Origin: an uncultured virus (IMG/VR IMGVR_UViG_3300042519_001519)
Taxonomy: Duplodnaviria; Heunggongvirae; Uroviricota; Caudoviricetes
Length of the DNA stretch: 64,000 nt
Strand: one strand, 5' to 3'
IMG/VR virus record: IMGVR_UViG_3300042519_001519
Location: 1 to 64,000 of that record
Below are positions 30,719 through 60,828 of the stretch, in pieces. Under the pieces are notes generated by a model. The model worked only from the letters and a program-made list of their open reading frames with translations. It was not told the DNA's origin and did not search any database. Made by a program: the position numbers and the translations under genes. Positions within the stretch are counted from its first letter, which is position 1. Each line of letters starts with the position of its first letter.

Positions 30719-31450
30719 ATGCTACGCTATATAATCATAGCACTGTTATCAATAAATTCACTCTATTCCCAGGTACAATTTCAAGTGCCTGGGATTACAG
30801 TGTCTCCGTCTAATACCATAGATCTACCTGTAGCTATTCTAACAAATGGAAATGCAGTAGGGAGTTTAGAATTTGCTTTAAATTACGATCAAAGCATTTT
30901 ACAATTCTCAGAAATAATTTTATCTGAAAAAGCACAAACCTGGTTAACCTATACAATGGATACCGGAAGTGGAAAAGTAAGATGGGGAGGATATGATAGA
31001 ACACATGGACAGCATACTGTAACAGCTCCAACAGAATTATTCATATTAAAATTTACAGTACTTAATCCTAACTGGACTACAACTCCTATAACCGTAGGAA
31101 GAAAGACAGCTGGAAATGTACAAGGGTGGGATATCGCTGTAACTAATACAGATGGTTATATCAACTATAATAGGTATGCAGCTCCTTTAGATGAAGATGG
31201 AATTCACGGAAAAGTATATCCAGTACCTACAGATGGAATTATAACAATGGAGATGTCTTTACCAGTGAGTGGAGATTATGAAATTGCAGTTTACGACATG
31301 GGAGGAAATCAACTAAGTATAAAGAAAGAACGTTTTGCAAAAGGACCGAATACTACTTATGGAGATCTAACTGCTTACCCAAGTGGTAACTATTTATTAA
31401 ATATAAGAAGTAAGAACTTCGCAAAAACATTTAAAGTAATAAAAAAATAA
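30719..31450 (+). CDS. Cohesin-like protein with a T9SS type-A C-terminal sorting domain
   Basis: Signal peptide (YS/Q); VGSLEFALNYDQSILQF...LFILKFTV; KVYPVPT...VYDMGG...SGNYLLNI...KTFKVIKK. Confidence 0.8.
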   Translation: MLRYIIIALLSINSLYSQVQFQVPGITVSPSNTIDLPVAILTNGNAVGSLEFALNYDQSILQFSEIILSEKAQTWLTYTMDTGSGKVRWGGYDRTHGQHTVTAPTELFILKFTVLNPNWTTTPITVGRKTAGNVQGWDIAVTNTDGYINYNRYAAPLDEDGIHGKVYPVPTDGIITMEMSLPVSGDYEIAVYDMGGNQLSIKKERFAKGPNTTYGDLTAYPSGNYLLNIRSKNFAKTFKVIKK

Positions 31451-37080: not shown

Positions 37081-37971
37081 ATGTCTAAAAAACATGTTGT
37101 AGTATCCTTAAGTGGAGGAATGGACTCAAGTACATTATTACTTAGATGTCTAAAAGAGTATGATAGTGTAACAGCTATCTCATTTGACTATGGTCAAAAA
37201 CACAGAGTAGAGCTAGATAGAGCTCAATCATTGGTGAATTATATAAATTCAAACGATTCTATTGAAGCTAATGGAAGTAATTACATATTTTACCCAAAAG
37301 TAAACTATCGCCAAATCAAACTAGACGGATTAGTTGACTTACTAGATTCAGCTTTAGTAACTGGAGGTGAAGATGTACCAGAAGGTCACTATGCAGAAGA
37401 TAATATGAAAGCAACAGTTGTTCCTAACAGAAACAAAATATTTGCTTCTATTACTCAAGCAATAGCTTTATCAGTTGCTCAAAGAACAGGTGAATTTTGT
37501 AGTATTGCTTTAGGTATTCACGCTGGAGATCATGCAATTTATCCTGATTGTAGACAAGAATTCCGTGATGCTGATGATTATGCATTTAGAATAGGAAATT
37601 GGGGAGCTGAAAATGTAGGGTATTTTACACCTTACTTGAAAGGAGATAAATTTACTATCTTACAAGACGGAGAAGTATTATGTGAAGAATTAGGATTAAA
37701 TTTTGATGAAGTTTATAAAAGAACTAACACATCTTATAAACCAATTTGGATACCTGGACCTGAAAGTAACTCAAGAGTAGAAGAAACACTTAGAACTAAA
37801 TTTGGAGAATGGTACTCAGATTATAAATCAGCTTCATCAGTTGAAAGAGTAGAAGCATTTATTAAATTAGGAAGAAAAGATCCAGCTCCTTATGCAGACG
37901 AAACAGGACCAGTAACATGGGAACATGTGGTAGCAGAGGTAACAAAAGTATTAGATAACCATAACAATTAA
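37081..37971 (+). CDS. queC: 7-cyano-7-deazaguanine synthase
   Basis: SLSGGMDS, FDYGQKH, TVVPNRN, HAGDHAIYPDCR. Confidence 0.95.
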   Translation: MSKKHVVVSLSGGMDSSTLLLRCLKEYDSVTAISFDYGQKHRVELDRAQSLVNYINSNDSIEANGSNYIFYPKVNYRQIKLDGLVDLLDSALVTGGEDVPEGHYAEDNMKATVVPNRNKIFASITQAIALSVAQRTGEFCSIALGIHAGDHAIYPDCRQEFRDADDYAFRIGNWGAENVGYFTPYLKGDKFTILQDGEVLCEELGLNFDEVYKRTNTSYKPIWIPGPESNSRVEETLRTKFGEWYSDYKSASSVERVEAFIKLGRKDPAPYADETGPVTWEHVVAEVTKVLDNHNN

Positions 37972-40241: not shown

Positions 40242-40325
40242 GGAAGGCGGCCGAATGGACGAGGAGCTTGTCTTGAAAACAAGTAGCGGGTAACACCGTT
40301 GTGGGTTCGATTCCCATGTCTTCCT
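40242..40325 (+). tRNA. tRNA-Ser(TGA)
   Basis: Cloverleaf; CTTGT-CTTGAAA-ACAAG; long variable arm. Confidence 0.9.
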
Positions 40326-40331
40326 CAATAT

Positions 40332-40403
40332 TGGCTTATAGTGTAACGGTTAGCACAAAACACTTTGACTGTTTTAGTCTAGGTTCGAATCCTAGTAAGC
40401 CAA
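40332..40403 (+). tRNA. tRNA-Gln(TTG)
   Basis: AAACA-CTTTGAC-TGTTT; canonical T-arm. Confidence 0.92.
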
Positions 40404-40412
40404 CAATAATTT

Positions 40413-40488
40413 CGGGTAGTAGAGGAGTCTGGTTTATCTCGCTGGCCTTGGACGCTAGAGCACGCAGGTTCGAATCCTGCTTACCCGA
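40413..40488 (+). tRNA. tRNA-Pro(TGG)
   Basis: CTGGC-CTTGGAC-GCTAG. Confidence 0.92.
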
Positions 40489-40494
40489 CGAATT

Positions 40495-40566
40495 GCCCCT
40501 ATAACTTAACGGCTAAAGTACTATACTTTTAATATAGGAATCCAAGTTCGATTCTTGGTGGGGGTA
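40495..40566 (+). tRNA. tRNA-Lys(TTT)
   Basis: CTATA-CTTTTAA-TATAG. Confidence 0.9.
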
Positions 40567-40571
40567 CAAAA

Positions 40572-40667
40572 GCTACATACACAACCTTACAATCTCTCAG
40601 TTAAAAGCTGTTGTAAGATCAAGTAATAAGCCAATATGCTTGTTAGTTGTGATCAGGTGTAGCACCA
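40572..40667 (+). ncRNA. Non-tRNA structured RNA with an acceptor-like stem and ACCA end
   Basis: GCTACAT/GTGTAGC+ACCA; CACAAC/GTTGTG; CTTACAA/TTGTAAG; TAATAAGC/GCTTGTTA. Confidence 0.65.
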
Positions 40668-40738
40668 GCCTCGTTGGCGTAATGGGAGCGTATTTCTTTT
40701 ACATGGAAATGGCAGTAGTTCGATTCTACTACGAGGTA
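40668..40738 (+). tRNA. tRNA-Val(TAC)
   Basis: TTTCT-TTTACAT-GGAAA; full cloverleaf. Confidence 0.85.
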
Positions 40739-40837
40739 CAAAATTCTGGGTAGCAAGTAAAATACCGGCAAGTATTTTCAAGTCTATATGGAGTCTATTA
40801 TGAGTTATTAATTTGCCGATGAAAGCTTGTTATAGTT

Positions 40838-40909
40838 TCGTTCTTGGTAGATTGGTGACTACGCTGCCCGCGGAGGGTGGAGAAGCAGGTTCGATTCCTG
40901 TAGAATGAT
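40838..40909 (+). tRNA. Atypical tRNA, anticodon CGG (Pro?), with G at position 33
   Basis: TCGTTCT/AGAATGA; GTAG/CTAC; CTGCC-CGCGGAG-GGTGG; canonical T-arm. Confidence 0.6.
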
Positions 40910-40915
40910 CAAATT

Positions 40916-40996
40916 GGGATGCTTCAGTCACTGGTGTGATAAGCGGTCTGTAAAATCGTTCTGTAAGAAGGTGTGGTTCGATTCCACAGTGTCCCA
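40916..40996 (+). tRNA. tRNA-Tyr(GTA)
   Basis: GCGGT-CTGTAAA-ATCGT; variable arm. Confidence 0.85.
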
Positions 40997-41058
40997 CAAA
41001 TATGGAATAACATCGCTCCCGTAATGCCATGGCTTGTATACGAGTGACGGGAGACAAT

Positions 41059-41131
41059 GGACCTTTGGTATAGCTGGTGCGTACGCTAGTCTGAAGAACT
41101 AGAGGAGTAGGTTCGATTCCTACAGGGTCCA
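41059..41131 (+). tRNA. tRNA-Phe(GAA)
   Basis: CTAGT-CTGAAGA-ACTAG. Confidence 0.92.
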
Positions 41132-41133
41132 CG

Positions 41134-41208
41134 AAGTAGAGAGGTATGGGTTCGAGTCCCATCCGGGCCGTTAGCGGCGCGGTAGTATAACGGTAGTAAC
41201 GCTTTCTT
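41134..41208 (+). ncRNA. Circularly permuted tRNA-like element (YrlA/Y-RNA-like topology)
   Basis: T-arm first, then acceptor stem closed by a TTAG loop, then D-arm; termini pair AAG-T-AGAG/CTTT-CTT. Confidence 0.7.
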
Positions 41209-41280
41209 GGGTTTGTCGTATAACGGCTATTACGGATGACTGTTAATCATCTTATGAAGGTTCGATTCCTTCCAGGCCCG
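41209..41280 (+). tRNA. tRNA-Asn(GTT)
   Basis: GATGA-CTGTTAA-TCATC. Confidence 0.92.
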
Positions 41281-41286
41281 CAAAAT

Positions 41287-41360
41287 AGGTAATTAGCTCA
41301 ATTGGTTAGAGCACTCGCCTGATACGTGAGAGGTTATAGGTTCGATTCCTATATTACCTA
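41287..41360 (+). tRNA. tRNA-Ile(GAT)
   Basis: CTCGC-CTGATAC-GTGAG. Confidence 0.92.
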
Positions 41361-41365
41361 CAAAG

Positions 41366-41448
41366 GGAAAGTAAATCAACTAGGAGTTGAGACCGCTTGC
41401 TAAGCGTATCGTGCCTTCGGGCATGGGGTTCGATACCTCTGCTTTCCT
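41366..41448 (+). tRNA. tRNA-Ser(GCT)
   Basis: TTGCTAA loop; GTGCC-TTCG-GGCAT variable arm; some mismatches. Confidence 0.8.
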
Positions 41449-41579
41449 CAAAAAAACCTCCTCACCGTCCTCACAACGCATCTAAGGAATGCAGGAGAAG
41501 GAAGTACGAACGGGGCCCCGTGGTAAGACACATTAAAATCAGATAGTACAGCGATAGGGTAAGAGGTTCCCTATCAACT

Positions 41580-41648
41580 ACCGACTTGATCTAGGATCGA
41601 GAATATCTCATAAGTATTCTCAGACAAGAGCGTAACTTGTAGTCGGTA
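41580..41648 (+). tRNA. Atypical tRNA(CAT) with a minimal D-arm and non-canonical T-loop
   Basis: ACCGACT/AGTCGGT; GAATAT-CTCATAA-GTATTC; ACAAG-AGCGTAA-CTTGT. Confidence 0.6.
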
Positions 41649-41765
41649 CTAAATTATATGGGTAGGTAGGAAGTTAAGAAACGTTTCTCAAAAAACGACT
41701 TAATGAGGTAAAGCGTTAGAGTAGTAAAATTGAGTAAGCGTTATTAAAGTAGTATAATTTTATAT

Positions 41766-41837
41766 GGTGTTCGAAGCTTTTTAGTGAAGCGCAAGACTGT
41801 GAATCTTGAGAAGACGGGGCGGTACCGTCCTTACACC
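41766..41837 (+). tRNA. tRNA-His(GTG), divergent
   Basis: CAAGA-CTGTGAA-TCTTG; G-1/C73; T-loop GGCGGTA and two acceptor mismatches. Confidence 0.75.
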
Positions 41838-41843
41838 CAACAT

Positions 41844-41923
41844 GCCTCTGTGGTGAAATAGGTAAACACACCAGGCTTAAAACTTGGCGCTCAGGCTTGC
41901 TGGTTCGACTCCAGTCAGGGGTA
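41844..41923 (+). tRNA. tRNA-Leu(TAA)
   Basis: CCAGG-CTTAAAA-CTTGG; variable arm. Confidence 0.9.
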
Positions 41924-42012
41924 CAAAAAAATCGCTGATGTCCTCTTTAATTGTTCGACATTGAAGATGTGTAATGATATAAACATCGTAGGTTAAGCGA
42001 TATCCTACAACT

Positions 42013-42084
42013 GGTCTTATAGTTTAATTGGAAAAACTTATCGCTACGAACGATAGAACGTAGGTTCGACTCCTACTAAGACCT
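42013..42084 (+). tRNA. tRNA-Arg(ACG)
   Basis: TATCG-CTACGAA-CGATA. Confidence 0.92.
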
Positions 42085-42244
42085 CAAAATATAATTACAA
42101 AGCGTAGGTAAGAAGACGTGGAGAGACGTTGCGCAAGGGTACACACTAAGGATAAGTATTTATACTCAACTCTCTAAGGGTGTGTGAAGCACTAAGAAAT
42201 TAGATCCCAGATTCCTGATAAAACTTACTAATTATATTTTAACC

Positions 42245-42316
42245 GCCCTATTAGTTAAACGGATATAACGAATCTCTTCTAAAGATTAATTCTAGGTTCG
42301 ATTCCTGGATGGGGTA
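42245..42316 (+). tRNA. tRNA-Arg(TCT)
   Basis: AATCT-CTTCTAA-AGATT. Confidence 0.92.
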
Positions 42317-42322
42317 CAACAA

Positions 42323-42393
42323 GCGGGTCACAGACAAGGTGTCGGTACGGTCTCCAAAACTGCTACGGGTAGGTTCGATTCCTACGGTCTGCG
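42323..42393 (+). tRNA. tRNA-Trp(CCA), short D-arm
   Basis: CGGT-CTCCAAA-ACTG; canonical T-arm. Confidence 0.8.
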
Positions 42394-42460
42394 CAAAATT
42401 ATTAATTATGAAAAAGAAATTCGATGCTCATTAGGTTTATTAACCTAAAATTTGAGCAAG

Positions 42461-42643
42461 ATGAGAATCAAAAACTATACTCAGAAAGAGTATAAAAAAG
42501 AAAAAAGAAAACAATCCAAAGATGGTGGAATGTGGTTTGAAGACTATTGGAGTAAATGTAAATCCGGAATATGGGCCTTCAAGTACAGAGAGTACCGTAC
42601 TTGGAAGTACAACAGAAAAACACAGTATAAACCTTTAAATTAA
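42461..42643 (+). CDS. Small basic hypothetical protein
   Basis: Lys/Arg/Trp-rich; ends RTWKYNRKTQYK. Confidence 0.5.
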   Translation: MRIKNYTQKEYKKEKRKQSKDGGMWFEDYWSKCKSGIWAFKYREYRTWKYNRKTQYKPLN

Positions 42644-42648
42644 AAATC

Positions 42649-43155
42649 ATGAGTAAGTATCAAAAAGCACTAGTAGTGGATGCAAGCTTTACAGCAAGAT
42701 CAGTTATAAGTACCGAACGAGCGTTCGTGATTTTTTATAAGGGTAATGCTGAAGTAGTAGCAGAGCATCCAGAAACATTTAGTTTAATTAATCCTGAACT
42801 AACCATTTACAAACCTTCTATTATTAGAGTAGCTAAGTATGTAAAACAAAACATTCAAAAAGTACCTCTAACAAGAGAGAATATTTACCGAAGAGATAAT
42901 TATGAATGTGTTTATTGTGGTAGTTCAAATCAAAGAATATTAACACTTGACCATGTTATCCCTCAATCAAAAGGAGGAAAAGATGCTTGGGATAATTTAG
43001 TAACAGCTTGTAGACCATGTAATCATGAGAAAGCAGATTTAACATTAGAGGAATATGGTAAGGAAATTCCAGAACCAAAAAGACCTCATTATTTAATGTT
43101 AATGAGAAGTATGACATACATACCTAAAGAATGGGAAACATTTTTATTCTTTTAA
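42649..43155 (+). CDS. HNH endonuclease inside the tRNA array
   Basis: RDNYECVYCG...LTLDHVIPQSKGG...NLVTACRPCNHEK. Confidence 0.93.
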   Translation: MSKYQKALVVDASFTARSVISTERAFVIFYKGNAEVVAEHPETFSLINPELTIYKPSIIRVAKYVKQNIQKVPLTRENIYRRDNYECVYCGSSNQRILTLDHVIPQSKGGKDAWDNLVTACRPCNHEKADLTLEEYGKEIPEPKRPHYLMLMRSMTYIPKEWETFLFF

Positions 43156-43158
43156 ATA

Positions 43159-43314
43159 ATGGAAGAGTGGAAGCCAGGATATTATGATAAATGGGAGAAT
43201 TTTATTCCTTATGATAAAAAATGGTATTGTAATGAAAATAAAAGAATCCATCAATCAGAAAAGGAAAAAAATAATTGTAAGTATTGCAATAAAGGTTTGG
43301 AAAACCAGAAATAG
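43159..43314 (+). CDS. 51-aa possible Zn-binding peptide (not in the ORF track)
   Basis: C-x6-H-x8-C-x2-C spacing. Confidence 0.4.
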   Translation: MEEWKPGYYDKWENFIPYDKKWYCNENKRIHQSEKEKNNCKYCNKGLENQK

Positions 43315-43327
43315 TTTCATATATTAA
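43297..43327 (+). promoter_or_regulatory. Internal promoter for the second half of the tRNA array
   Basis: TTG-N20-TATATTAA. Confidence 0.7.
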
Positions 43328-43424
43328 GGTATAAGAAAGTAAAATATATCACCTACTACAAAACGGCGCGCGAAACAATAGAATCCCGACTTGTACTGTC
43401 TGGAAGGTCAGGCTAGGTGAAAAT

Positions 43425-43495
43425 GGGCAGTTGGCCGATTGGTTAGGCACAGGATTGCAAACTCTGTTAGGTTGGTTCGATTCCAACACTGCCCT
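43425..43495 (+). tRNA. tRNA-Cys(GCA)
   Basis: TTGCAAA loop; U73. Confidence 0.88.
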
Positions 43496-43590
43496 CATTT
43501 AAGGTTCGACCCTCTACCAAATGTGTTACACCCACAAATGGACAACGAGAGGGAGCTACCGATTGATAAGTGGCCGCACATGCGGCAAAT

Positions 43591-43664
43591 GCCCGAGTGG
43601 TGGAATTGGCAGACACGGCGGCCTTAGAAGTCGTAAACTGAGAGTTCGAGTCTCTCCTTGGGTA
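43591..43664 (+). tRNA. tRNA-Leu(TAG) lacking the long variable arm
   Basis: GCGGC-CTTAGAA-GTCGT; Leu-type D-loop; 5-nt variable region. Confidence 0.85.
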
Positions 43665-43668
43665 CAAA

Positions 43669-43735
43669 TTAGAGTTAGCTTATAGTAAAGCAGCAGGGGC
43701 TAACCTGCAGAACGGATACGAAAACCGGCTCTAAT
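43669..43735 (+). ncRNA. Degenerate tRNA-like element (6-nt loop GGCTAA, aberrant T-arm)
   Basis: TTAGAGT/GCTCTAA; GCTT/AAGC; GCAGG/CCTGC; CGG/CCG. Confidence 0.55.
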
Positions 43736-43740
43736 TATCT

Positions 43741-43814
43741 GCTTCTGACGCACAAATGGTGGTGCACCGGATTTGTAACCCAGAATAGAGTCGGTTCGAT
43801 CCCGTCCAGAAGCT
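43741..43814 (+). tRNA. tRNA-Thr(TGT), mismatched anticodon stem
   Basis: GCTTCTG/CAGAAGC; TTTGTAA loop. Confidence 0.7.
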
Positions 43815-43819
43815 CAACT

Positions 43820-43891
43820 GCGACTATCGTATAATGGTCATTACTTCAGACTTCCAATCTGAAGATGAGAGTTCGATTCTCTCTAGTCGCT
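43820..43891 (+). tRNA. tRNA-Gly(TCC)
   Basis: TCAGA-CTTCCAA-TCTGA. Confidence 0.93.
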
Positions 43892-43942
43892 CAGGGGTGT
43901 GTAGGAGCCCAAGAGTATGTGATGAGCATACGCCTACAATTT

Positions 43943-44014
43943 GCTGCCATCGTCTAACGGCTAGGACCTATGGTTTTCATCCATAAAATCGGAGTTCGAT
44001 TCTCCGTGGCAGTA
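43943..44014 (+). tRNA. tRNA-Glu(TTC)
   Basis: TATGG-TTTTCAT-CCATA. Confidence 0.92.
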
Positions 44015-44019
44015 CAAAA

Positions 44020-44091
44020 GGGGCTATAGTGAAATTGGCATCACGATAGATTTGCATTCTGTTATTCCGGGTTCGAATCCCGGTAGCTCCA
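44020..44091 (+). tRNA. tRNA-Ala(TGC)
   Basis: TTTGCAT loop; G3-U70 pair. Confidence 0.93.
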
Positions 44092-44096
44092 CAAAA

Positions 44097-44168
44097 GGTC
44101 TATTCGTTCAACGGCTAGGATACTACCCTGTCACGGTAGGGATGAGAGTTCGATTCTCTCATAGACCG
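44097..44168 (+). tRNA. tRNA-Asp(GTC)
   Basis: CTACC-CTGTCAC-GGTAG; G73. Confidence 0.93.
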
Positions 44169-44177
44169 CTTATAAAC

Positions 44178-44247
44178 TGCGTTAAAGTGTAAAGGTTGCA
44201 TCCCGGTCTCATAAGCCGGGGGGGTGGTTCGAGTCCACGCTACGCTA
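44178..44247 (+). tRNA. tRNA(CAT), initiator-like
   Basis: CCGGT-CTCATAA-GCCGG; 1:72 mismatch. Confidence 0.7.
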
Positions 44248-44253
44248 CAAATT

Positions 44254-44327
44254 GTCCTTTTAGCTCAGATGGTGAGAGCAGCTCGCTCATAACGAGAAGG
44301 TCACAGGTTCGAGCCCTGTATAGGACA
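44254..44327 (+). tRNA. tRNA(CAT), elongator Met or Ile2
   Basis: CTCG-CTCATAA-CGAG; canonical D and T arms. Confidence 0.85.
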
Positions 44328-44391
44328 CTAAATTTTATCCACTATGAGGTCAATTCCTTCGTCTCCAATGTAGGTTAGCTATTGCTAACTT

Positions 44392-44692: not shown

Positions 44693-44908
44693 ATGGTCTG
44701 GTCTGTATTTAGTATTGAAGTAAAAGAGCAATTAGCATGGACAATACATACTAGACTATTTATGGGCGATCTATCTAATATAGATCTTACAACAGATTGG
44801 AGATTTTGTGATGTTAAAGGAAAAAGAAGGAATTGTATATTCTTAGGTTTTATTGACAACCCAGAATTTCCATTAAAAGAACCAATAAAAACATATAGAA
44901 ATAATTAA
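44693..44908 (+). CDS. Hypothetical protein
   Basis: ORF after the promoter at 44645-44675. Confidence 0.5.
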   Translation: MVWSVFSIEVKEQLAWTIHTRLFMGDLSNIDLTTDWRFCDVKGKRRNCIFLGFIDNPEFPLKEPIKTYRNN

Positions 44909-44923
44909 ATAAAAATCATAGTT

Positions 44924-45835
44924 ATGAAAAATTCGTTATCTACAAAAGGGTTATCAATGTCTCAAGCACAATCAATCTCAAACTTGTGCAATCAACGTTC
45001 AAAAGATATTACAGCGAAATTGGCTGATATCAATAACGTTTCTAAAGAACTAGTAATAGGTTCAGAAACCTATGTAGAGACTAATGGGAATCCTATCCCA
45101 GTAAACGTAGTTGAGCTATTAACTGCTAAGGCAAGATTATCTGCCACTCAAGCTTTCTTGATGGAGAATATCAAAGCAAAGGATGAATTGATTACTAAAA
45201 TCAAATTTGAAAAGTATAACTACGAGGTTGAATCTCCAGAGAGACCAAAACTAATCTCAGAAGTAATTCCAACAGAAGTGGATGAAGATTTTGGTTGGGA
45301 TACTTTATCTACAGCCGAATACAACGAATACCTAGAGGCAGAAGCTTATGCTTCACATATCGGACAATTCATCCATAAAGGAGGAAAATTGGATAAGTTG
45401 AGAGGAGAACTTCCTACCATTAAAACTTTAGAGTTTATGGAAATAGAAGTAGGAAAGAAAACTCCTATGAAAGTATCTATTCACCATACAGCAGAACAAT
45501 TGCTTTCAGTTCATGAACAATTAGCAGCTCTTCATAGAGGATTTGAACAAAGAGTAAATTACTTTAAATCTAAAGTAAAAAATGCTACTACTTCTGAGAA
45601 TGCTAGAATTCAGAAAGAGAGAGGTATCATTCAAGCAAGAGTGAATAACGAGAATGCAGAAGCTGCAAACAATTATAAGTTAGCTTATGATAAGTGGTCT
45701 GGAGAGGAACGTCAAGCACAACACGAGTTTGAAGAAAAACGTCAAGCAAGAATCCAAGAAGCTGTCAATTTAAAAATTGAAGTAGCAGAAAGATTCCAGG
45801 ACGTAGTAGATGAATTCTTGAATCAACTAAAATAA
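44924..45835 (+). CDS. Helical/coiled-coil protein of unknown function, followed by a structured RNA
   Basis: 303 aa; heptad-rich N- and C-terminal regions. Confidence 0.75.
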   Translation: MKNSLSTKGLSMSQAQSISNLCNQRSKDITAKLADINNVSKELVIGSETYVETNGNPIPVNVVELLTAKARLSATQAFLMENIKAKDELITKIKFEKYNYEVESPERPKLISEVIPTEVDEDFGWDTLSTAEYNEYLEAEAYASHIGQFIHKGGKLDKLRGELPTIKTLEFMEIEVGKKTPMKVSIHHTAEQLLSVHEQLAALHRGFEQRVNYFKSKVKNATTSENARIQKERGIIQARVNNENAEAANNYKLAYDKWSGEERQAQHEFEEKRQARIQEAVNLKIEVAERFQDVVDEFLNQLK

Positions 45836-46146
45836 TTTGGTGCTAAGGAGGTAAGCACAAGCCGATCCTCCAAAGCTTTATGCTGGGATAGTAGAGTTTT
45901 AAATATAAACTATATGATATATGTAATCATCTACAGACTAAACGGCCATGGGCCCTTTAAAACTCGCTTCCCTACAACTTAAACCAAACTGAGATAGAAC
46001 TCAACAGCTAGACATGTTACTCTTGAGGGAGACTAAAAGTGGCTAGCGACTCTAAGACTTAGTTTTTGTCCTTGCCCTTGTGGTAGTGGAAGGTTTTTGA
46101 CTTTGATTTTGCATTTGACCTAGGCTATATGCTTTACATCCCAGCA
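45836..46146 (+). ncRNA. ~310-nt structured RNA with period-6 G-NN-(Y)TT repeats
   Basis: GTGCT/AGCAC with GGAGG/CCTCC pseudoknot; TGCTGGGAT/ATCCCAGCA; GAGTTTTAAA/TTTAAAACTC; CTTCC-CTAC/GTAG-T-GGAAG. Confidence 0.7.
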
Positions 46147-46224
46147 ACATTTTTTTAAAAATAATTAACAAAAAGCTTGCTTAGGCAGGCTTTTATTCGT
46201 ATATTTAGGTATAGAAAAAAGATT

Positions 46225-46467
46225 ATGAAAGATGCATTAGGAATAGAGATTCAAATAGGACAGCGATACGGATACTCCAGAAATGAAAATGGATTTACTT
46301 ATGTACGAATAGGTACTATAAGTAAGGTAAATGAAAAGACAGTAACAATGGATGTAGAGATTACAAAGAGAGCATTATACAGTGCAGACTTGGTAATAGA
46401 TTCTACATCAAGTAAAAAAATATCAATAAAAGGAAATATGTTATTCCCAGTTAATACAATAGATTAA
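46225..46467 (+). CDS. Hypothetical protein (start reassigned to ATG 46225)
   Basis: The TTG at 46177 is the promoter -33 element; MKDALGIEIQIG start. Confidence 0.6.
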   Translation: MKDALGIEIQIGQRYGYSRNENGFTYVRIGTISKVNEKTVTMDVEITKRALYSADLVIDSTSSKKISIKGNMLFPVNTID

Positions 46468-46468
46468 A

Positions 46469-47119
46469 ATGAAACTAGTATTAGAAAAAGGACAGCAATT
46501 GTTCTTTACATCAGACACACATTACTCACACTCAAACATTTGTAGTGCTACTACAAACTGGTCAGTGAATGATGGATATGCTCGTAAGTTTGATTCATTG
46601 GAAGATATGAACCAAAGACTAGTTGATAACATTAACAACATGGTCGGTGAAGATGATATCTTAATCCATTTAGGTGACTGGTCATTTGGAGGATTTGATA
46701 AGATTGAAGAATTCAGAAGTCAAATCAACTGTAAAAACATTCACTTGACATTTGGAAACCATGATCATCACATCGAAAGAAACAAAGAGGGAGTACAAAA
46801 ACTATTCTCTTCAGTACAAAACTATTTGAGATTAGAAGTACAAAGACCAATCAATAAAGCAACAACTGAAAAGTTTATTTTCGTTTGTATGCACTATCCA
46901 ATAGCGTCATGGCATGATATGAACCAAGGAGTAATTCACTTGCATGGCCACGTTCATTTACCTTCACACCTAAGAATAGCAGAAGGTAAGGCAATGGATG
47001 TTGGAGTAGATGGAAATGGTTTAGAGCCTTTATCATTAGATGAAATAGTAGAATTGATGAAAGATCGTCCAGTTAAAAAATTAGCTTTACCAAAGGATCA
47101 TCACGAAAAGAGAATTTAA
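46469..47119 (+). CDS. Calcineurin-like metallophosphoesterase
   Basis: SDTH, HLGD, GNHD, HYP, HGHVH, DVGVD. Confidence 0.92.
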   Translation: MKLVLEKGQQLFFTSDTHYSHSNICSATTNWSVNDGYARKFDSLEDMNQRLVDNINNMVGEDDILIHLGDWSFGGFDKIEEFRSQINCKNIHLTFGNHDHHIERNKEGVQKLFSSVQNYLRLEVQRPINKATTEKFIFVCMHYPIASWHDMNQGVIHLHGHVHLPSHLRIAEGKAMDVGVDGNGLEPLSLDEIVELMKDRPVKKLALPKDHHEKRI

Positions 47120-47120
47120 T

Positions 47121-47336
47121 ATGAATATAATATACTCATACAGTCCACAAAAGGTTAAAGAACCTCAATGGTATAAATTTTATAATACTGAAGAGTTTAA
47201 CATAACTACTCAGAGAGATTATACAGCAAGAGCTGCATCTAGGTTAGATCTAATACCAGAACCTAAATGTTTTACTCAAGAGTTTTTACGTAAACATGGA
47301 GACCATAGTAATATGATGTTAAAAAAGAAAATATGA
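47121..47336 (+). CDS. Hypothetical protein
   Basis: ORF in operon. Confidence 0.45.
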   Translation: MNIIYSYSPQKVKEPQWYKFYNTEEFNITTQRDYTARAASRLDLIPEPKCFTQEFLRKHGDHSNMMLKKKI

Positions 47337-47740
47337 AAGAGTTATTTTTATTAAGAGGATTACCTGGATCAGGTAAATCAACATTAGCAGAATCTTTAAC
47401 AGGAGGATCTTTTTTTGAAGCAGATCTTTTTTTCTTAGATGAGAAAGGAGAGTATAGATTTGATGCTTCTAAATTAAAAGACGCTCATAAGTGGTGCCAA
47501 GATCGTGTAGAAGCTATTATGAAAGGATTTGGAGCACATATACACCCAGCAAACAGGATTGTAGTGTCGAATACATTCACTCAGGAATGGGAAATGCAAC
47601 CATACTTTGATCTAGCAGAAAAATACAGATACAGAGTTTATTCTTTGATTGTAGAAAATAGACATGGAGGAGTAAACGAGCATGGAGTCCCAGAAGAAAA
47701 ATTAGTACAAATGAAAAATAGATTCGAAATAAAATTATAA
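47333..47740 (+). CDS. P-loop polynucleotide-kinase-like protein (AAA_33-type)
   Basis: RGLPGSGKST, EAD.FF, AHKWCQ, VSNTF, HGVP. Confidence 0.85.
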   Translation: MKELFLLRGLPGSGKSTLAESLTGGSFFEADLFFLDEKGEYRFDASKLKDAHKWCQDRVEAIMKGFGAHIHPANRIVVSNTFTQEWEMQPYFDLAEKYRYRVYSLIVENRHGGVNEHGVPEEKLVQMKNRFEIKL

Positions 47741-47839
47741 GAAATGGAATTTTGGAAAGTATGGTTAATAGTAGTGTCTTTATGGTACATAGGTTTTAAA
47801 TTGCATGATATTTTAAATGAACTTAAAAAGAAATAAAAA

Positions 47840-48967
47840 ATGGAAAATCAAAATAGTGTTTGCTTTGTAGCAACAATCAAAGAAGTAAAAGCAATCGAAG
47901 GAGCTGACAACATCGAACAAGTAGTTGTTGGAGGATGGAATGCTATTACCAAAAAAGGTGAATTTAAAGAAGGTGACTTAACAGTTATTGCAACTACGGA
48001 TGCAGTAATTCCAGAAGCATTTTCTGAAAAAATGGGAGTTACTTCTTATCTAAGAAAAGGAGGTAGAGTAAGAACTGTAAAATTAAGAGGAGTTTATTCT
48101 GAATGTCTAATCATTCCAACCAAATACATTCCAGGATATGGAGACAGATACCAAGATGGAGATGACATGATGGAAAAATTTGGTATTGTAAAATACGAAC
48201 CACCAGTTAAGCAAATTCAACTTGCTTCAGGTAGAAAAATTAAATGGAGAGACAATCAAAACTTCCATATCTACTACAAATTCCCAAACCTTAAAAACGT
48301 AGCAGGAATGTTTACTGAAGAAGATTTAGTAGAAATTACTAGAAAGGTTCACGGTACAAATGCTAGATACGGTATTGTAAAGAAAGGTAAATTATCATTC
48401 TGGGATAAAGTAAAAAAATTCTTTAGACTAGCTGATGAATGGATTGACTATGAATACATTTATGGATCTCATAACTGTGAAAAAGGAAGTGACTCTCAAG
48501 GATTCTATTCAACTGATGTTTGGAGAACAATCGCTGAAAAGTATAACATCAAAGAAAAACTTTGGAGTTATATTAAAAACAGAAATATTGAAATAGGTGA
48601 AGGTATTATCCTATACGGAGAGATTTACGGAGCAGGTATTCAGAAAAACTATGACTATGGTTTGACTGATATTGAGTTTGCAGGGTTTGATGTGAAACTT
48701 AAAGGAGAATACGTAAGTACATATGATGCTTGGGTTTTAATTGAAAACCATTTAAAATTACCTTATGTAGAGGTTTTACATTATGGGGATTGGACACAAG
48801 AAATCCAAGATAAATTTACATTCAACAACTTCATTGAAGGAACTAAAGTACCACATGAAGGAATTGTAATTAAATACTTCACCGGTGAACGTCAAAAGGT
48901 AGCAAAGGTAATCAATCCAGACTATTTGATCTACGGAGAGAAGAATGATGTAGGAGATTCTCACTAA
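47840..48967 (+). CDS. RNA ligase (DRB0094/Rnl5-like) with an N-terminal OB domain
   Basis: IEGADNIE, RVRTVKLRGVYSECL, KVHGTN (motif I), YGEIYG, FDV, EGIV, AKVINPDYL. Confidence 0.9.
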   Translation: MENQNSVCFVATIKEVKAIEGADNIEQVVVGGWNAITKKGEFKEGDLTVIATTDAVIPEAFSEKMGVTSYLRKGGRVRTVKLRGVYSECLIIPTKYIPGYGDRYQDGDDMMEKFGIVKYEPPVKQIQLASGRKIKWRDNQNFHIYYKFPNLKNVAGMFTEEDLVEITRKVHGTNARYGIVKKGKLSFWDKVKKFFRLADEWIDYEYIYGSHNCEKGSDSQGFYSTDVWRTIAEKYNIKEKLWSYIKNRNIEIGEGIILYGEIYGAGIQKNYDYGLTDIEFAGFDVKLKGEYVSTYDAWVLIENHLKLPYVEVLHYGDWTQEIQDKFTFNNFIEGTKVPHEGIVIKYFTGERQKVAKVINPDYLIYGEKNDVGDSH

Positions 48968-50346: not shown

Positions 50347-50757
50347 ATGCTAAGACATAGAATATACTTAGACGACGTAAGAACACCAGTTGATCCAACT
50401 TGGATCGTGGTAAGAAATTACGAAGAGTTTGTACAAAAGGTACAAGACTTAGGACTGGAAAACATTGATATAATTTCATTAGATCACGATTTAGGACCTT
50501 CGGCAATGGCTGAATGGCACTCAAACGTGTATCACAATTATGAATTAAATTATGATAACATTGAAGAGAAAACTGGAATGGATTGCACTAAATGGCTGGT
50601 GGATAAATGGTTGGACGGAGCTCCTGTTGTTGATGTTGTAATACATTCTGCAAATGCTGTGGGGAGTGCTAACATGATGGGGTACATAAACAACTACAGA
50701 CATATCCACAGATTACCTCAGAATTGTGTAAGAGTACAAATTGAACATACAGTATAA
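50347..50757 (+). CDS. Cyclic-phosphate-processing receiver-like domain protein
   Basis: IYLDDVR, ISLDHDLG, TGMDC, IHSAN.VG. Confidence 0.8.
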   Translation: MLRHRIYLDDVRTPVDPTWIVVRNYEEFVQKVQDLGLENIDIISLDHDLGPSAMAEWHSNVYHNYELNYDNIEEKTGMDCTKWLVDKWLDGAPVVDVVIHSANAVGSANMMGYINNYRHIHRLPQNCVRVQIEHTV

Positions 50758-51120: not shown

Positions 51121-51351
51121 ATGATTTGGATATTATTACTTTACGTTTTACCACTAGTACTTAGTATGTTAGTGGCATATTTCCTAATAAAAAAAGAAGG
51201 AGGGTCAGTAAAAGACTTTTTAGAACCACTTCCTTTTTTATTCATTCCTATAATGAACATTGCAGCCTTAGGAGCAGGGTTAGTTATTTTTATTGAGAAA
51301 TTTTTAGAAGAAGATGAATCTTGGCAAAACTTTAAAAACAAAAAACTATAA
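51121..51351 (+). CDS. Small two-TM membrane protein
   Basis: Two hydrophobic segments. Confidence 0.6.
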   Translation: MIWILLLYVLPLVLSMLVAYFLIKKEGGSVKDFLEPLPFLFIPIMNIAALGAGLVIFIEKFLEEDESWQNFKNKKL

Positions 51352-52067
51352 TGAGAATAACAGTACTATCAGACACACATACAAGACATGGATTGATTCC
51401 TATGGAAGATTTACCTGGAGGTGATCTTCTTATTCATGCTGGAGACATAATGAATTCAGGGTACAACAAGAACGACATCTGGGATTTCTGTCATTGGTTC
51501 CAATCTCTAAAGCAATACCAAGACAAAGTATTCATAGCAGGTAACCACGATCGAATGTTTGAAAATCATCCTGAGGATGTAAAGGAATGGGTAGACAAGT
51601 TTGGAGATATAATCTATCTTCAAGATGATGACTTAGTACTATACGGAGATGGTCCAAATGGAGATTCTCCTCAAGACAATATTCGCATTTACGGATCACC
51701 TTGGCAACCGGAATTCTATTCTTGGGCATTCAATTTACCAAAAAATGGAATTGAAATAGCAGGTAAGTGGGAAGGTATTCCTGACAACACAGACATCTTG
51801 GTTACACATGGTCCTTCATTTGGAACTCTAGATACAGTAGCAGGAAGACCTTGGGACGGATTAGGATGCGAATTGTTAGCTCAAAGAATTGAAATTATTA
51901 AACCAAAGATCCATGTATGTGGACATATTCATTCAGGATATGGTTATGAGTTTAAAAATGGTACTCACTTCTTTAATGCATCAGTATTGGATGAGGCTTA
52001 CGAGTACACTCAAAAGCCAATGACGTTTGATTGGGACAAGGAAACAAATACAGTAAAATTTATTTAA
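51351..52067 (+). CDS. Metallophosphoesterase (MPPED-like)
   Basis: SDTH, HAGD, AGNHD, YGSPWQP, THGP, CGHIH. Confidence 0.92.
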   Translation: MRITVLSDTHTRHGLIPMEDLPGGDLLIHAGDIMNSGYNKNDIWDFCHWFQSLKQYQDKVFIAGNHDRMFENHPEDVKEWVDKFGDIIYLQDDDLVLYGDGPNGDSPQDNIRIYGSPWQPEFYSWAFNLPKNGIEIAGKWEGIPDNTDILVTHGPSFGTLDTVAGRPWDGLGCELLAQRIEIIKPKIHVCGHIHSGYGYEFKNGTHFFNASVLDEAYEYTQKPMTFDWDKETNTVKFI

Positions 52068-57017: not shown

Positions 57018-57479
57018 ATGAAATTTCAAGCAACAAAACTATTTGACGGCTACTCAGCATGCTTTCGACAATGGAAAGCAGAGGGTACACATTGCAGATT
57101 TCTTCACGGCTATGCCGTATCATTCCGAGTATGGTTCGAAGGAGAACTAGACGAAAGAAACTGGGTATGGGACTTCGGAGGAATGAAAAGAGCTAAAGGA
57201 AACATCGAAGGATATTCTCCAAAAGCATTTTTCGATTACCTATTAGATCATACAACTATTGTAGCAGAGGATGATCCTTATATGGATACATTTAAACAAA
57301 TGCATAACGACGGCGTTATACAGTTAAGAATACTTCCTGCTACAGGATGTGAACGATTTGCAGAATACTTACATTTAAAAATCAATACATTTTTACTTGA
57401 AGAAACAAACAGTAGAGTAAGAGCTACTAAGGTAGAAGTTTACGAACATGAAAGGAACTCAGCATCTTATGGTGAGTAA
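57018..57479 (+). CDS. queD: 6-carboxy-5,6,7,8-tetrahydropterin synthase
   Basis: CRFLHGY, WVWDFG, LDH, CE, VYEH..NSA. Confidence 0.9.
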   Translation: MKFQATKLFDGYSACFRQWKAEGTHCRFLHGYAVSFRVWFEGELDERNWVWDFGGMKRAKGNIEGYSPKAFFDYLLDHTTIVAEDDPYMDTFKQMHNDGVIQLRILPATGCERFAEYLHLKINTFLLEETNSRVRATKVEVYEHERNSASYGE

Positions 57480-57792: not shown

Positions 57793-58566
57793 ATGAAAAG
57801 AATAGAAGATTATAACAAAACACTTCCCATTGTAGAGCTTTATACAGCAGTACAATCAGAAGGAAGTAGAGCAGGTTATCCAACCGTAGTAATCAGAACA
57901 ACAGGCTGTACTCACAGATGTTGGTTTGGTGATGGTGGATGGTGCGATTCTTGGTACACAAGTATACATCCTGAAAAAGGACATATCAGTTTTCAAGATA
58001 TTATTAACATGTATGATGCCAATCCCCACATCACAGAGATGATGCTAACAGGAGGATCACCAACAATGCATCCAGCATTAGTAAACGAATTAACACATTT
58101 TGCACATGAAAGAAATATTTTCATTACGATTGAGACCGAAGGAAGTCATTTTCTTGAGACAGATTACCCAATTAATCTATTATCAATCTCCCCTAAGTTC
58201 AGTAATTCTGTCCCTAAGGTTGGCATTGCAACACCTCAAGGAGACATTACAGATGAGAAAATGATTAAACAGCATAACAAGCTAAGATTAAACTACGATG
58301 CAATATCCAAATCAATCTCTTATCATTCAGACTACCATTTAAAACCGGTATGGGATGGAGAGGATCAAGAAGCATTAAAAGAGATTATGAATTGTATTAA
58401 AATGCTAGACATACCAGAAGATAAAGTATGGTTCATGCCAGCAGGAGATTCAAGAGAAGCTTTATTCAAATCATATCCAAAAATGTTTGATTGGGTTAGA
58501 GATAACGGTTATAGATTGACCTGGAGACCTCACATCATTGCATTTGAAGACCAAAGAGAAGTGTAA
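57793..58566 (+). CDS. queE: 7-carboxy-7-deazaguanine synthase (radical SAM)
   Basis: VQSEG..AG.P, RTTGCTHRC...WCDS, LTGGSP, IETEG, ISPK. Confidence 0.92.
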   Translation: MKRIEDYNKTLPIVELYTAVQSEGSRAGYPTVVIRTTGCTHRCWFGDGGWCDSWYTSIHPEKGHISFQDIINMYDANPHITEMMLTGGSPTMHPALVNELTHFAHERNIFITIETEGSHFLETDYPINLLSISPKFSNSVPKVGIATPQGDITDEKMIKQHNKLRLNYDAISKSISYHSDYHLKPVWDGEDQEALKEIMNCIKMLDIPEDKVWFMPAGDSREALFKSYPKMFDWVRDNGYRLTWRPHIIAFEDQREV

Positions 58567-60120: not shown

Positions 60121-60828
60121 ATGTCAAATAAAAAATTTATCGACGGTACAGAATTAGTACAAGCCGGATTCGCTAATGGTATTTCCTCTCAATTGGCAAA
60201 AAAACAACTAACAGAAGGTCCAGAAGCAAGATTAACTGAAGTAGAAAAGCAACACATCATTGAAGATGCAGCAGAAGCTTTCGGACAATTCCTTTCAGCT
60301 TTAGGATGTGATTGGCAGAATGATCCAAATTCATCTGATACTCCTAAAAGAGTTGCAAAAGCATACGTAAACGATTTATGGGCAGGTCGATTTGAACCAC
60401 TAACAAGAATTACAGCATTCCCTTCTGATGGTTATGATGGAATAGTACAAGAGAGTAATATACCAGTTACCTCAATGTGCTCACATCACCACCAAACAAT
60501 TTCAGGAGAGGTAAGTATAGCTTATGTTCCTTCAGCAGATGGAAAGGTAGTTGGGCTTTCAAAATTAAATCGAATTGTAGAGCAGTTTGCTAGACGTGGA
60601 GCTATTCAAGAGCAGTTAACAGTTGCAATTCATAATGCAGTAGATAAAATCTGTGAAGGTAATCTAGGAGTAGCAGTAGCAATTTCAGCAACACATAACT
60701 GTGTATCGTGTAGAGGGATTAAACATCAGGGAGCTTCAATGCAAACAGCAAAGTTAACAGGGTGTTTCTTAGATGAAGCATCAGCAAGAGCAGAATTCTA
60801 TACAAATATTAAACTTGGAAAAAAATAA
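60121..60828 (+). CDS. folE: GTP cyclohydrolase I
   Basis: DTPKRVAK, SMCSHHH, VGLSKLNR, QEQLT, HNCVSCRG. Confidence 0.96.
   Translation: MSNKKFIDGTELVQAGFANGISSQLAKKQLTEGPEARLTEVEKQHIIEDAAEAFGQFLSALGCDWQNDPNSSDTPKRVAKAYVNDLWAGRFEPLTRITAFPSDGYDGIVQESNIPVTSMCSHHHQTISGEVSIAYVPSADGKVVGLSKLNRIVEQFARRGAIQEQLTVAIHNAVDKICEGNLGVAVAISATHNCVSCRGIKHQGASMQTAKLTGCFLDEASARAEFYTNIKLGKK

Follow-up and report, generated by a model that had tools for sequence, protein, structure and literature searches.

What is encoded in the gap without open reading frames (ORFs) that follows a 303-aa orphan protein gene in the genome of an uncultured tailed phage, and how is it related to that gene? The DNA analysed (hereafter the window, 64,000 nt) comprises the first 64 kb of an IMG/VR record of 76 kb (IMGVR_UViG_3300042519_001519) that is estimated to be ~47% complete. 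A preliminary description had placed in this gap a structured RNA of about 310 nt with period-6 repeats, and had proposed that the upstream protein, described as a coiled coil, oligomerises on it. Our analysis partly confirmed that observation and partly supported its interpretation. The gap is indeed free of ORFs from the end of the 303-aa gene up to an ATG at 46225, and positions 45831-46149 of the + strand are a real gene for a non-coding structured RNA. This RNA consists of a hairpin (P0), a long P1 stack and helices P3, P4 and P5, keeps its place downstream of the protein gene in related phages, and is abundant, with discrete ends, in environmental RNA. We tentatively explain it as one of a new family of non-coding RNAs that are stable, processed and composed of several helices; it may well act in trans as a protein-binding platform, likely as a ribonucleoprotein with the upstream 303-aa protein.

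Comparative evidence for an RNA gene

We gathered 80 related IMG/VR loci with the 303-aa protein as the query (identity 100-48%) and aligned 52 distinct homologues of the RNA with MAFFT, independently of structure. Folding of the single sequence was weakly better than that of its shuffles (z of -2.0 for the + strand and -2.5 for the - strand), so the status of the gap as an RNA gene was decided by comparative evidence. Comparison of the 52 homologues showed that 47 proposed base pairs were formed in 92.7% of 2424 cells, against 37.6-54.7% when the partners were slid by 1-3 columns, and that compensatory changes, with both sides changed, occurred in 39 of the 47. None of 500 shuffles matched the observed alignment on any of five covariation measures. 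Among the tested pairs G-U exceeded A-C (343 versus 108), which places the RNA on the + strand. The proposal of a structured RNA of ~310-320 nt is thus borne out by covariation. No conserved ORF was found in the six frames of the 52 homologues; the longest ORF had a median length of 33 aa, and stops occurred in many sequences in each frame.

A search of the whole window with Rfam 15 (4227 models) returned only 19 tRNAs at the gathering threshold, and a search of 45700-46300 at E<=10 gave six chance-level matches, mostly over the terminator, the best of which scored 21.8 bits against a gathering threshold of 45. ARAGORN found no tmRNA in the window, the INPHARED phage collection gave no match by DNA or by protein, and a literature search returned neither a described motif for the RNA nor a phage circular RNA. 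The nhmmer profile of the RNA matched the contig in a single copy, at 45837-46157. This motif may be among the 10,006 candidate structured RNAs that were catalogued from IMG/VR in 2023 (PMC10690425); three spreadsheets and one document of the supplement contain no contig identifier or sequence of this locus, and an entry for it there would be unnamed and uncharacterised. Neither the RNA nor the 303-aa protein belongs to a described family.

Architecture of the RNA

The upstream gene, the RNA with its parts and the hairpin that follows it are located as follows.

44924-45835, + strand: 303-aa orphan protein gene, the ORF upstream of the RNA
45831-46149, + strand: stable structured RNA, ~319 nt, its ends placed by metatranscriptome contigs; block 45836-46149 conserved
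45839-45879, + strand: P0 hairpin, stem 45842-45851/45867-45876, basal GG.UU
45855-45856/45861-45862, + strand: P0 apex, a 2-bp stem (2-3 bp across homologues) with an ACAA tetraloop at 45857-45860 (ANAA family-wide)
45881-45889 with 46138-46146, + strand: P1a, TGCTGGGAT/ATCCCAGCA, 9 pairs, 8 of them compensated
45891-45897 with 46131-46137, + strand: P1b
45898-45964, + strand: variable AU-rich domain with a small GC hairpin at ~45944-45954
45967-45973 (CUUCCCU) with 46085-46092, + strand: P3, 7 pairs, 6 of them compensated, 90.9% paired
45990-46003, + strand: P4 hairpin UGAG-AUAGAA-CUCA, 98.9% paired, near-invariant
46007-46047, + strand: P5, 46007-46011/46043-46047 and 46013-46015/46039-46041, 8 pairs, 7 of them compensated, 97.6% paired
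46055-46082, + strand: tract 1, AGACUUAG UUUUUG UCCUUG CCCUUG, phased NNNUUG hexamers, unpaired
46093-46123, + strand: tract 2, GUUUUUG ACUUUG AUUUUG CAUUUG ACCUAG, five phased hexamers, unpaired, register +1 relative to tract 1
46125-46130, + strand: invariant CUAUAU, a possible extension of the P1 stack (P1c)
46131-46149, + strand: 3' strands of P1b and P1a and the conserved tail A-A-C-A at the 3' end; A312 and C313 invariant
46171-46194, + strand: terminator-like hairpin seen in the fold, a module separate from the RNA

The first hairpin begins 4 nt past the stop codon of the 303-aa gene, as previously noted. Eight of the ten pairs of the P0 stem were compensated, for example by the replacement of GCUAAGGAGG/CCUCCAAAGC with ACCAAAGGGC/GCCCUAAGGU and with ACUUACAUGG/CCAUGUAAGU, and the apical pair G20-C27 was changed to A-U in four sequences; the loop UAAGCANAAGCCGAU was near-invariant in the 52 homologues, and the hairpin carries a near-invariant internal loop. 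This region had been drawn as an H-type pseudoknot. Its GGAGG/CCTCC arm stands, but its GTGCT/AGCAC arm does not, and the pseudoknot fails with it: 72% of the cells of this arm were paired, no compensation occurred, and position 7 was a G in 28 sequences and an A in 23 with an unchanging proposed partner, C21. The AGCAC segment actually sits in the covarying 2-3 bp apical stem, which is closed by the ANAA tetraloop.

The closing helix of the earlier scheme holds as P1a. Together, P1a and P1b comprise 16 pairs, 15 of which were changed on both sides, and 90.6% of their cells were paired. A further helix of that scheme, GAGTTTTAAA/TTTAAAACTC, was paired in 52.7% of cells, overlaps the better supported P1b, and was dropped. 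The AU-rich domain varies in length and sequence and is poorly aligned by MAFFT; constrained folds of 18 homologues each put a GC-rich hairpin ahead of P3. The pairings GGAGG/CCTCC (P0), CTTCC/GGAAG (P3) and GCTAG/CTAGC (P5), all proposed beforehand, covary in the 52 homologues, whereas the CTAC/GTAG pairing that had been drawn next to CTTCC/GGAAG was only partly retained (25-34 of 52). The TGAG/CTCA pairing (P4) was also upheld; near-invariant as it is, it shows a double compensatory change in L044, and the hairpin is longer in three divergent homologues. The apical hairpin of P5 varies in length. Pairing of P1c with an AUAUAG-like element 3' of P1b appears in constrained folds only. A candidate kissing interaction of the P4 loop (AUAGA) with the invariant UCUAU is unsupported, because divergent homologues alter, by eye, the loop and not its partner.

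Relatives have ORFs between the RNA and the terminator-like hairpin. The RNA has a copy of the AT-rich 9-nt string AAAATAATT at either end, at 45829-45837 and 46158-46166; the string probably arose by chance and could favour template switching or recombination.

Two phased single-stranded tracts

The two tracts with a G at every sixth position that had been described are real, and their period was conserved with no indel in the 52 homologues. The information content peaked with a period of six at G46062/68/74/80 in tract 1 and at G46093/99/105/111/117/123 in tract 2; both U's preceding each of these G's were also conserved, and the information content dropped in the 2-3 bases after each G. The consensus is NNNUUG, or G-N3-UUG when the units are read as overlapping heptamers, and the number and register of the units are fixed across the homologues. 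Shuffles within the tracts equalled the observed phasing in 12 and 1 of 20000 cases, respectively. Five 30-nt stretches on the + strand of the window, two of which are these tracts, are equally phased, which speaks against uniqueness of the phasing; the notable feature of the tracts is the conserved number and register, phasing alone not being rare.

Repeats of this kind could be read as a DNA-level element (iterons, an origin or a packaging site), since origins contain short phased repeats, and a small-protein gene could be seen in a 20-codon minus-strand ORF in the window. These readings are disfavoured and appear extremely improbable to us. The compensatory changes, with many G-U pairs, fit one strand only and the RNA accumulates, as described below. 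The ATG of the minus-strand ORF is retained in 16 of the 52 homologues only, and all frames are interrupted. In addition, the variable positions of the tracts are 2-3 adjacent bases in every six and not every third base, so there is no codon pattern.

Comparison of the individual heptamers showed that GUCUUUG is the majority form of h5 (28/52), h3 (13/52) and h4 (9/52); at least one exact copy is present in 37 of the 52 RNAs and none in 15. This heptamer equals the preferred site of Bacillus subtilis CspB (5'-GTCTTTG/T-3', measured on DNA), as given in PMC1904285. It points to the main rival of a platform for the 303-aa protein, namely a sponge or decoy for abundant host single-strand binders with an oligonucleotide/oligosaccharide-binding (OB) fold, such as cold-shock proteins, S1 or similar. 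The G-N3-UUG heptamer would then be a site of the size of a cold-shock domain, and the upstream protein would serve otherwise, e.g. in the processing or stabilisation of the RNA. The great abundance of the RNA would suit a sponge, but the match concerns a Firmicute protein measured on DNA whereas the host of the phage is probably a member of the Bacteroidota, and 15 of the 52 RNAs are without an exact copy. Moreover, sponges usually vary in repeat number, which is constant here, and a sponge would leave the strict co-inheritance with the 303-aa protein unexplained. The partner of a sponge would be host-encoded, because 80 small ORFs of the contig gave no match to a cold-shock, S1 or Hfq domain. 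We regard a sponge as unlikely.

Abundance, ends and head-to-tail joints

Across 24 RNA runs, which belong to 23 studies of lake, river, estuary and marine samples, 7-22% of the sampled words of 44700-46700 were present, roughly what the RNA by itself would make up of this 2-kb stretch. Contigs of four RNA runs (X1-X4) were placed on the window at >=88% likeness. In lake metatranscriptome contigs, the depth was 110-408x on the RNA and 2-16x on the protein gene, the depth being one figure per contig in which k-mers shared by strains add up, and RNA libraries may contain DNA. Run X1 gave a 284-nt contig at 45874-46149 (6 differences, depth 330) and a 278-nt contig of the gene at 45509-45786 (3 differences, depth 11). 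Run X2 gave contigs at 45993-46091 (0 differences, depth 408) and 46062-46149 (depth 352), with gene contigs at 2.2-2.3, and run X3 gave contigs beginning at 45831 and 45833 with depths of 218 and 271, respectively, and gene contigs at 3-11. The 5' contig starts fell at 45831, 45833 and 45834 and the 3' contig stops at 46149 (X1 and X2); in X2 an Illumina adapter stood directly after 46149 and directly before 45849. No depth was seen between 46174 and 46441 in X1-X3, and downstream genes were covered too in the marine run X4. These contigs give strong, though not quantitative, support to a discrete abundant RNA of ~45831-46149.

No sigma-70-like promoter was found directly 5' of the RNA, which points to processing of an operon transcript as its probable origin. 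The absence of such a promoter, the start of the RNA at the stop codon of whichever ORF precedes it and the terminator-like hairpin on its 3' side would also suit a cis-acting element of the operon, such as a stabiliser in the 3' untranslated region, an autoregulatory operator, a processing signal of the tRNA operon or an antiterminator like put of HK022, and GGUCUUUGAC is loosely boxA-like. However, ~319 nt with at least five covarying helices far exceeds known elements of that kind, the RNA accumulates 20-150 times above the flanking mRNA (by contig depths, which are indicative) with discrete ends, and the downstream genes differ between relatives. A cis-acting role is disfavoured, and we consider it very improbable.

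Head-to-tail contigs were found in two of the four RNA runs. In X3 position 46149 is joined to 45831 with five extra letters, the shorter side having 87 letters, and in X1 position 46149 is joined to 45832 with three extra letters. An exact-pattern scan for the junction in DNA, made with one sequence variant, gave no match in viral_contigs and three chance matches in unrelated coding DNA in metagenome_contigs; no tandem copies of the RNA were present among the profiled DNA loci. The joints could stem from a circular RNA, from a reverse transcriptase that jumps end to end between copies of an abundant linear RNA, or from a tandem gene missing from the sampled DNA. Whichever the cause, the joints of 46149 to 45831 or 45832 mark the ends of the RNA.

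The joints bear on the possibility that the RNA works by itself, either as a ribozyme or as a self-assembling ornate RNA like ROOL and GOLLD in which the tracts are tertiary elements, or, in a variant of this idea, that it is closed into a circle, perhaps by the products of the end-healing and ligase genes nearby. In favour of this are the size and multi-helical fold of the RNA, the invariance of nucleotides in its junctions and tracts, and its place in a phage beside tRNAs, as reported for GOLLD and ROOL. A circle would agree with the head-to-tail contigs in two runs, with the lack of a true DNA junction in the one-variant search and with the phosphoesterase, kinase, RNA ligase and cREC domain encoded within 5 kb. 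On the other hand, no ribozyme family scores in Rfam, and joints with a few extra letters are also expected from template jumping on an abundant linear RNA. The mean depth of a contig is uninformative on the depth at the joint, the junction search covered one exact variant, and a dedicated co-inherited protein argues for a ribonucleoprotein. An RNA-only machine, circular or not, is in our opinion rather improbable.

Linkage to the protein gene and to tRNAs

Searches with blastn and with the nhmmer profile placed the RNA 3' of the protein gene in 76 of the 80 related loci. Three of the four others end inside the protein gene and the fourth, L074, has ~220 nt downstream. A more distant protein search (alignment A4) gave 201 IMG/VR relatives, 80 of which were kept. 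The RNA lies just 3' of the protein gene in 78 of these, the exceptions being L234, which ends ~50 nt past the gene, and L211, in which none was detectable. A scan that started from the RNA (tract 1 pattern) found 119 loci, of which 80 were taken with flanks; 71 match the RNA profile and nine are chance matches antisense to Lys-rich coding DNA. The protein gene is upstream in 68 of the 71, and the other three have <350 nt of upstream sequence. No RNA without the protein gene was seen among the RNA-first loci with sufficient flank.

Of 57 loci, 36 have tRNAs in their flanks. In nine loci the distance from the end of the last tRNA to the protein start is <=80 nt, and a tRNA lies directly 3' of the RNA in L217, L243 and L257. 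The RNA is probably co-transcribed, and is co-inherited, with the 303-aa gene, typically within or beside a phage tRNA operon. The RNA family occurs in freshwater tailed phages, on contigs of ~100 to 434 kb.

Several loci had particular features. A recurrent family of 90-96-aa ORFs, absent from the window, lies between the protein gene and the RNA (L004 4229-4501; L010 3641-3916; L011 3918-4190; L017 3918-4208; L019 3918-4205; L030 4199-4486), and none of the inserted small ORFs, this family included, had a Pfam or PHROG match. A suppressor tRNA with the anticodon UUA, which reads the UAA stop, lies just 5' of the protein gene in L050 (2246-2320) and L062 (2843-2920). In L049 (2995-3438) the protein homologue is broken by an in-frame stop after 148 codons, which could reflect a pseudogene, a sequencing error or recoding; the downstream RNA is intact.

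The 303-aa protein

Relatives of the protein numbered 2533 at 90% clustering and formed 420 clusters at 50% identity (E<=1e-3), and the full-length ones were mostly ~280-330 aa long; the protein P0248 had no relative in IMG/VR. No Pfam or PHROG family matched the 303-aa protein, and the same was true of 12 distant members, which gave sub-threshold coiled-coil noise only. The best match of a PDB profile search had an E of 0.35, Foldseek against pdb returned nothing at E<=0.001, and BFVD returned only the protein's own family, an uncharacterised homologue from an uncultured phage. The wide VIA-align search gave a best Z of 7.6, within the range common for helical models, and the best score in the ESM Atlas was 0.79, to unnamed clusters.

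An AlphaFold2 model based on 27 homologues (pLDDT 84.7, pTM 0.73) has, in order, a helix, a beta-hairpin and a long helix, then helices, a beta-hairpin and a very long helix, and finally a C-terminal helical hairpin. The predicted structure shows two repeated helix/beta-hairpin/helix modules followed by the C-terminal helical hairpin. The protein, labelled a coiled coil earlier, is not simply one. Conserved motifs of the family are GLSxSQAQSxSNLCNQ, QAFLMENIKAKD, EAEAYAxHIGQFIH and LHRxYEQxVNYFKAKVKN.

A candidate ribonucleoprotein

We favour a protein-binding platform because fixed, phased, single-stranded sites are held by a folded scaffold, and the 303-aa protein, being strictly co-inherited, comes first among the candidate partners. 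In the mechanism that we propose, the two rigidly conserved single-stranded tracts (4 + 5 phased NNNUUG units), which flank the 3' strand of P3, would present about nine identical short sites, spaced in a fixed 6-nt register, to a single-strand-binding protein that oligomerises or has several domains. The likeliest partner of the tracts would be the co-encoded 303-aa protein with its two repeated modules, and the resulting phage ribonucleoprotein would act on the tRNA or translation side of the infection.

Several points weigh against this explanation. The contact between the protein and the RNA is a putative one. The protein is mildly acidic (pI 5.8, with a median of 6.0 over 27 homologues), and neither Foldseek nor VIA-align found a recognisable RNA-binding fold in it. 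At least 12 loci have small ORFs, from one to three of them, that separate the protein gene from the RNA, so immediate adjacency of the two is not required; where these ORFs intervene, the RNA begins right after their stop codon. The fixed repeat number and the near-invariant 'unpaired' tracts are also expected from the tertiary structure of an RNA-only machine. Finally, the expression ratio is indicative and not quantitative, because k-mers are summed across strains and the libraries may contain DNA.

A bolder version of the ribonucleoprotein explanation is possible, if doubtful. The pair would be a new class of ribonucleoprotein in tRNA operons, in which the 303-aa protein or a recruited host OB-fold protein polymerises in a fixed 6-nt register on the ~nine UUG sites of the folded scaffold and the particle manipulates or protects tRNA and the translation apparatus during infection. 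The enzymes for end healing and ligation that are encoded alongside may also close the RNA into a circle. If it is true, the circularised RNA would be the first circular non-coding RNA encoded by a DNA phage. The RNA-protein pair is widespread (at least 201 IMG/VR contigs with a relative of the protein, and the 420 clusters mentioned above), and few pieces of these phages are as well represented as the RNA in RNA libraries from lakes, rivers and estuaries. The pair would be a concrete phage RNA-protein system tied to tRNA arrays and relevant to counter-defence and to the takeover of translation, and the precisely phased UUG platform would offer a handle for biochemistry and cryo-electron microscopy.

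Genomic setting of the window

Every gene of the window is carried by the + strand. The source phage is, by its gene content, a large freshwater myovirus, since PHROG and Pfam matches include a tail sheath, a T4 gp19-like tube, a UvsX-like recombinase, a DnaB-like helicase, a ribonucleotide reductase and a 7-deazaguanine gene set. The ORF at 30719-31447 encodes a cohesin domain and a type IX secretion system (T9SS) C-terminal sorting domain (Por_Secre_tail, 1.4e-09). This sorting domain hints at a Bacteroidota host, which is probable. A scan of a genome collection matched only five contigs of metagenome-assembled genomes, apparently mis-binned phage, and yields no host name.

ARAGORN located 20 tRNA genes at 40242-44328, and an HNH endonuclease gene (42649-43155) lies within this array. 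The tRNA array is followed by two small ORFs, by the 303-aa ORF (44924-45835) and by the ORF-free stretch until the ATG at 46225. The ORFs 3' of the RNA gene are as follows.

46469-47119, + strand: metallophosphoesterase
47333-47740, + strand: AAA_33/polynucleotide-kinase-like protein
47840-48967, + strand: RNA ligase
50347-50754, + strand: cyclic-phosphate-processing receiver (cREC_REC) domain

With a further ORF at 51351-52064, these (46469-48967 and 50347-50754) form an extended RNA end-healing and sealing set of two metallophosphoesterases, the AAA_33 kinase, the RNA ligase and cREC_REC. The RNA ligase of the window carries a PHA02142 OB domain. A role in RNA conflict, at which the preliminary description had hinted, would fit this neighbourhood of tRNA array, phosphoesterase, kinase, RNA ligase and cREC domain. 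QueC-, QueD/PTPS-, QueE-, FolE- and QueF-like genes were seen in the window (37081-37971, 57018-57476, 57793-58566 and 60121-60828) and in L289 (48-734); the 7-deazaguanine pathway probably modifies the phage DNA.

Comparison with known systems

TRAP sites are (G/U)AG triplets spaced every 5-6 nt in an mRNA leader. The trp leader and anti-TRAP RNAs that work with the TRAP 11-mer of B. subtilis share with the present RNA regular, short, single-stranded motifs in a fixed number that are suited to wrapping an oligomer, but in this RNA UUG recurs at exactly 6 nt and the RNA itself is stable, putatively trans-acting and built on a large folded scaffold. The 9-11 (G/U)AG triplets with 2-3 nt spacers of a TRAP-binding RNA are absent, and the TRAP (MtrB) Pfam family was found neither in the 303-aa protein nor in seven neighbouring ORFs or 80 further small ORFs. 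The TRAP-like spacing invoked for the tracts earlier therefore survives as an analogy of logic and not in its motif or its protein. boxA-like antitermination and anticodon-loop (UUUUGA) decoys are further resemblances and nothing more.

The sponges CsrB and RsmZ are likewise abundant non-coding RNAs that show many copies of one short motif. The motif of the Csr sponges is GGA in hairpin loops, in a variable copy number, whereas the UUG motifs here form two linear tracts in which neither number nor register varies, and the RNA has no Rfam match.

6S RNA, Y RNA with Rsr, tmRNA and RNase P RNA are stable, structured and 100-400 nt long, with pairing between their 5' and 3' regions, and several of them work as ribonucleoproteins. 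None of them appeared in Rfam even at E<=10, and by eye neither a T-arm, nor a long rod with a bubble at its centre, nor a conserved core of the P4 type can be recognised in the RNA. Y RNA had no Rfam match; for an Rsr (TROVE) gene nearby, the comparison covered 26 large ORFs with PHROGs and 80 small ORFs with Pfam on this ~47% complete contig. Mimicry of a Bacteroidota promoter (TAnnTTTG/TTTG), as by 6S RNA, is a resemblance only, since the spacing does not fit.

GOLLD and ROOL are large, intricately folded RNAs that are borne by phages or prophages, often by tRNA genes, and whose function is unknown. The present RNA shares their phage-borne, tRNA-neighbouring context, but it has no Rfam match, measures ~319 nt as against roughly 580-800 nt, and has a linked protein gene and phased hexamer tracts. 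T4 species 1 and 2 (rnaC and rnaD) are stable non-tRNA RNAs processed in a myovirus tRNA operon, also of unknown function. The RNA described here is, like them, a stable non-tRNA RNA encoded in a myovirus tRNA operon; unlike them, it lacks DNA or protein similarity to the phage collection, is much larger and has a candidate partner protein.

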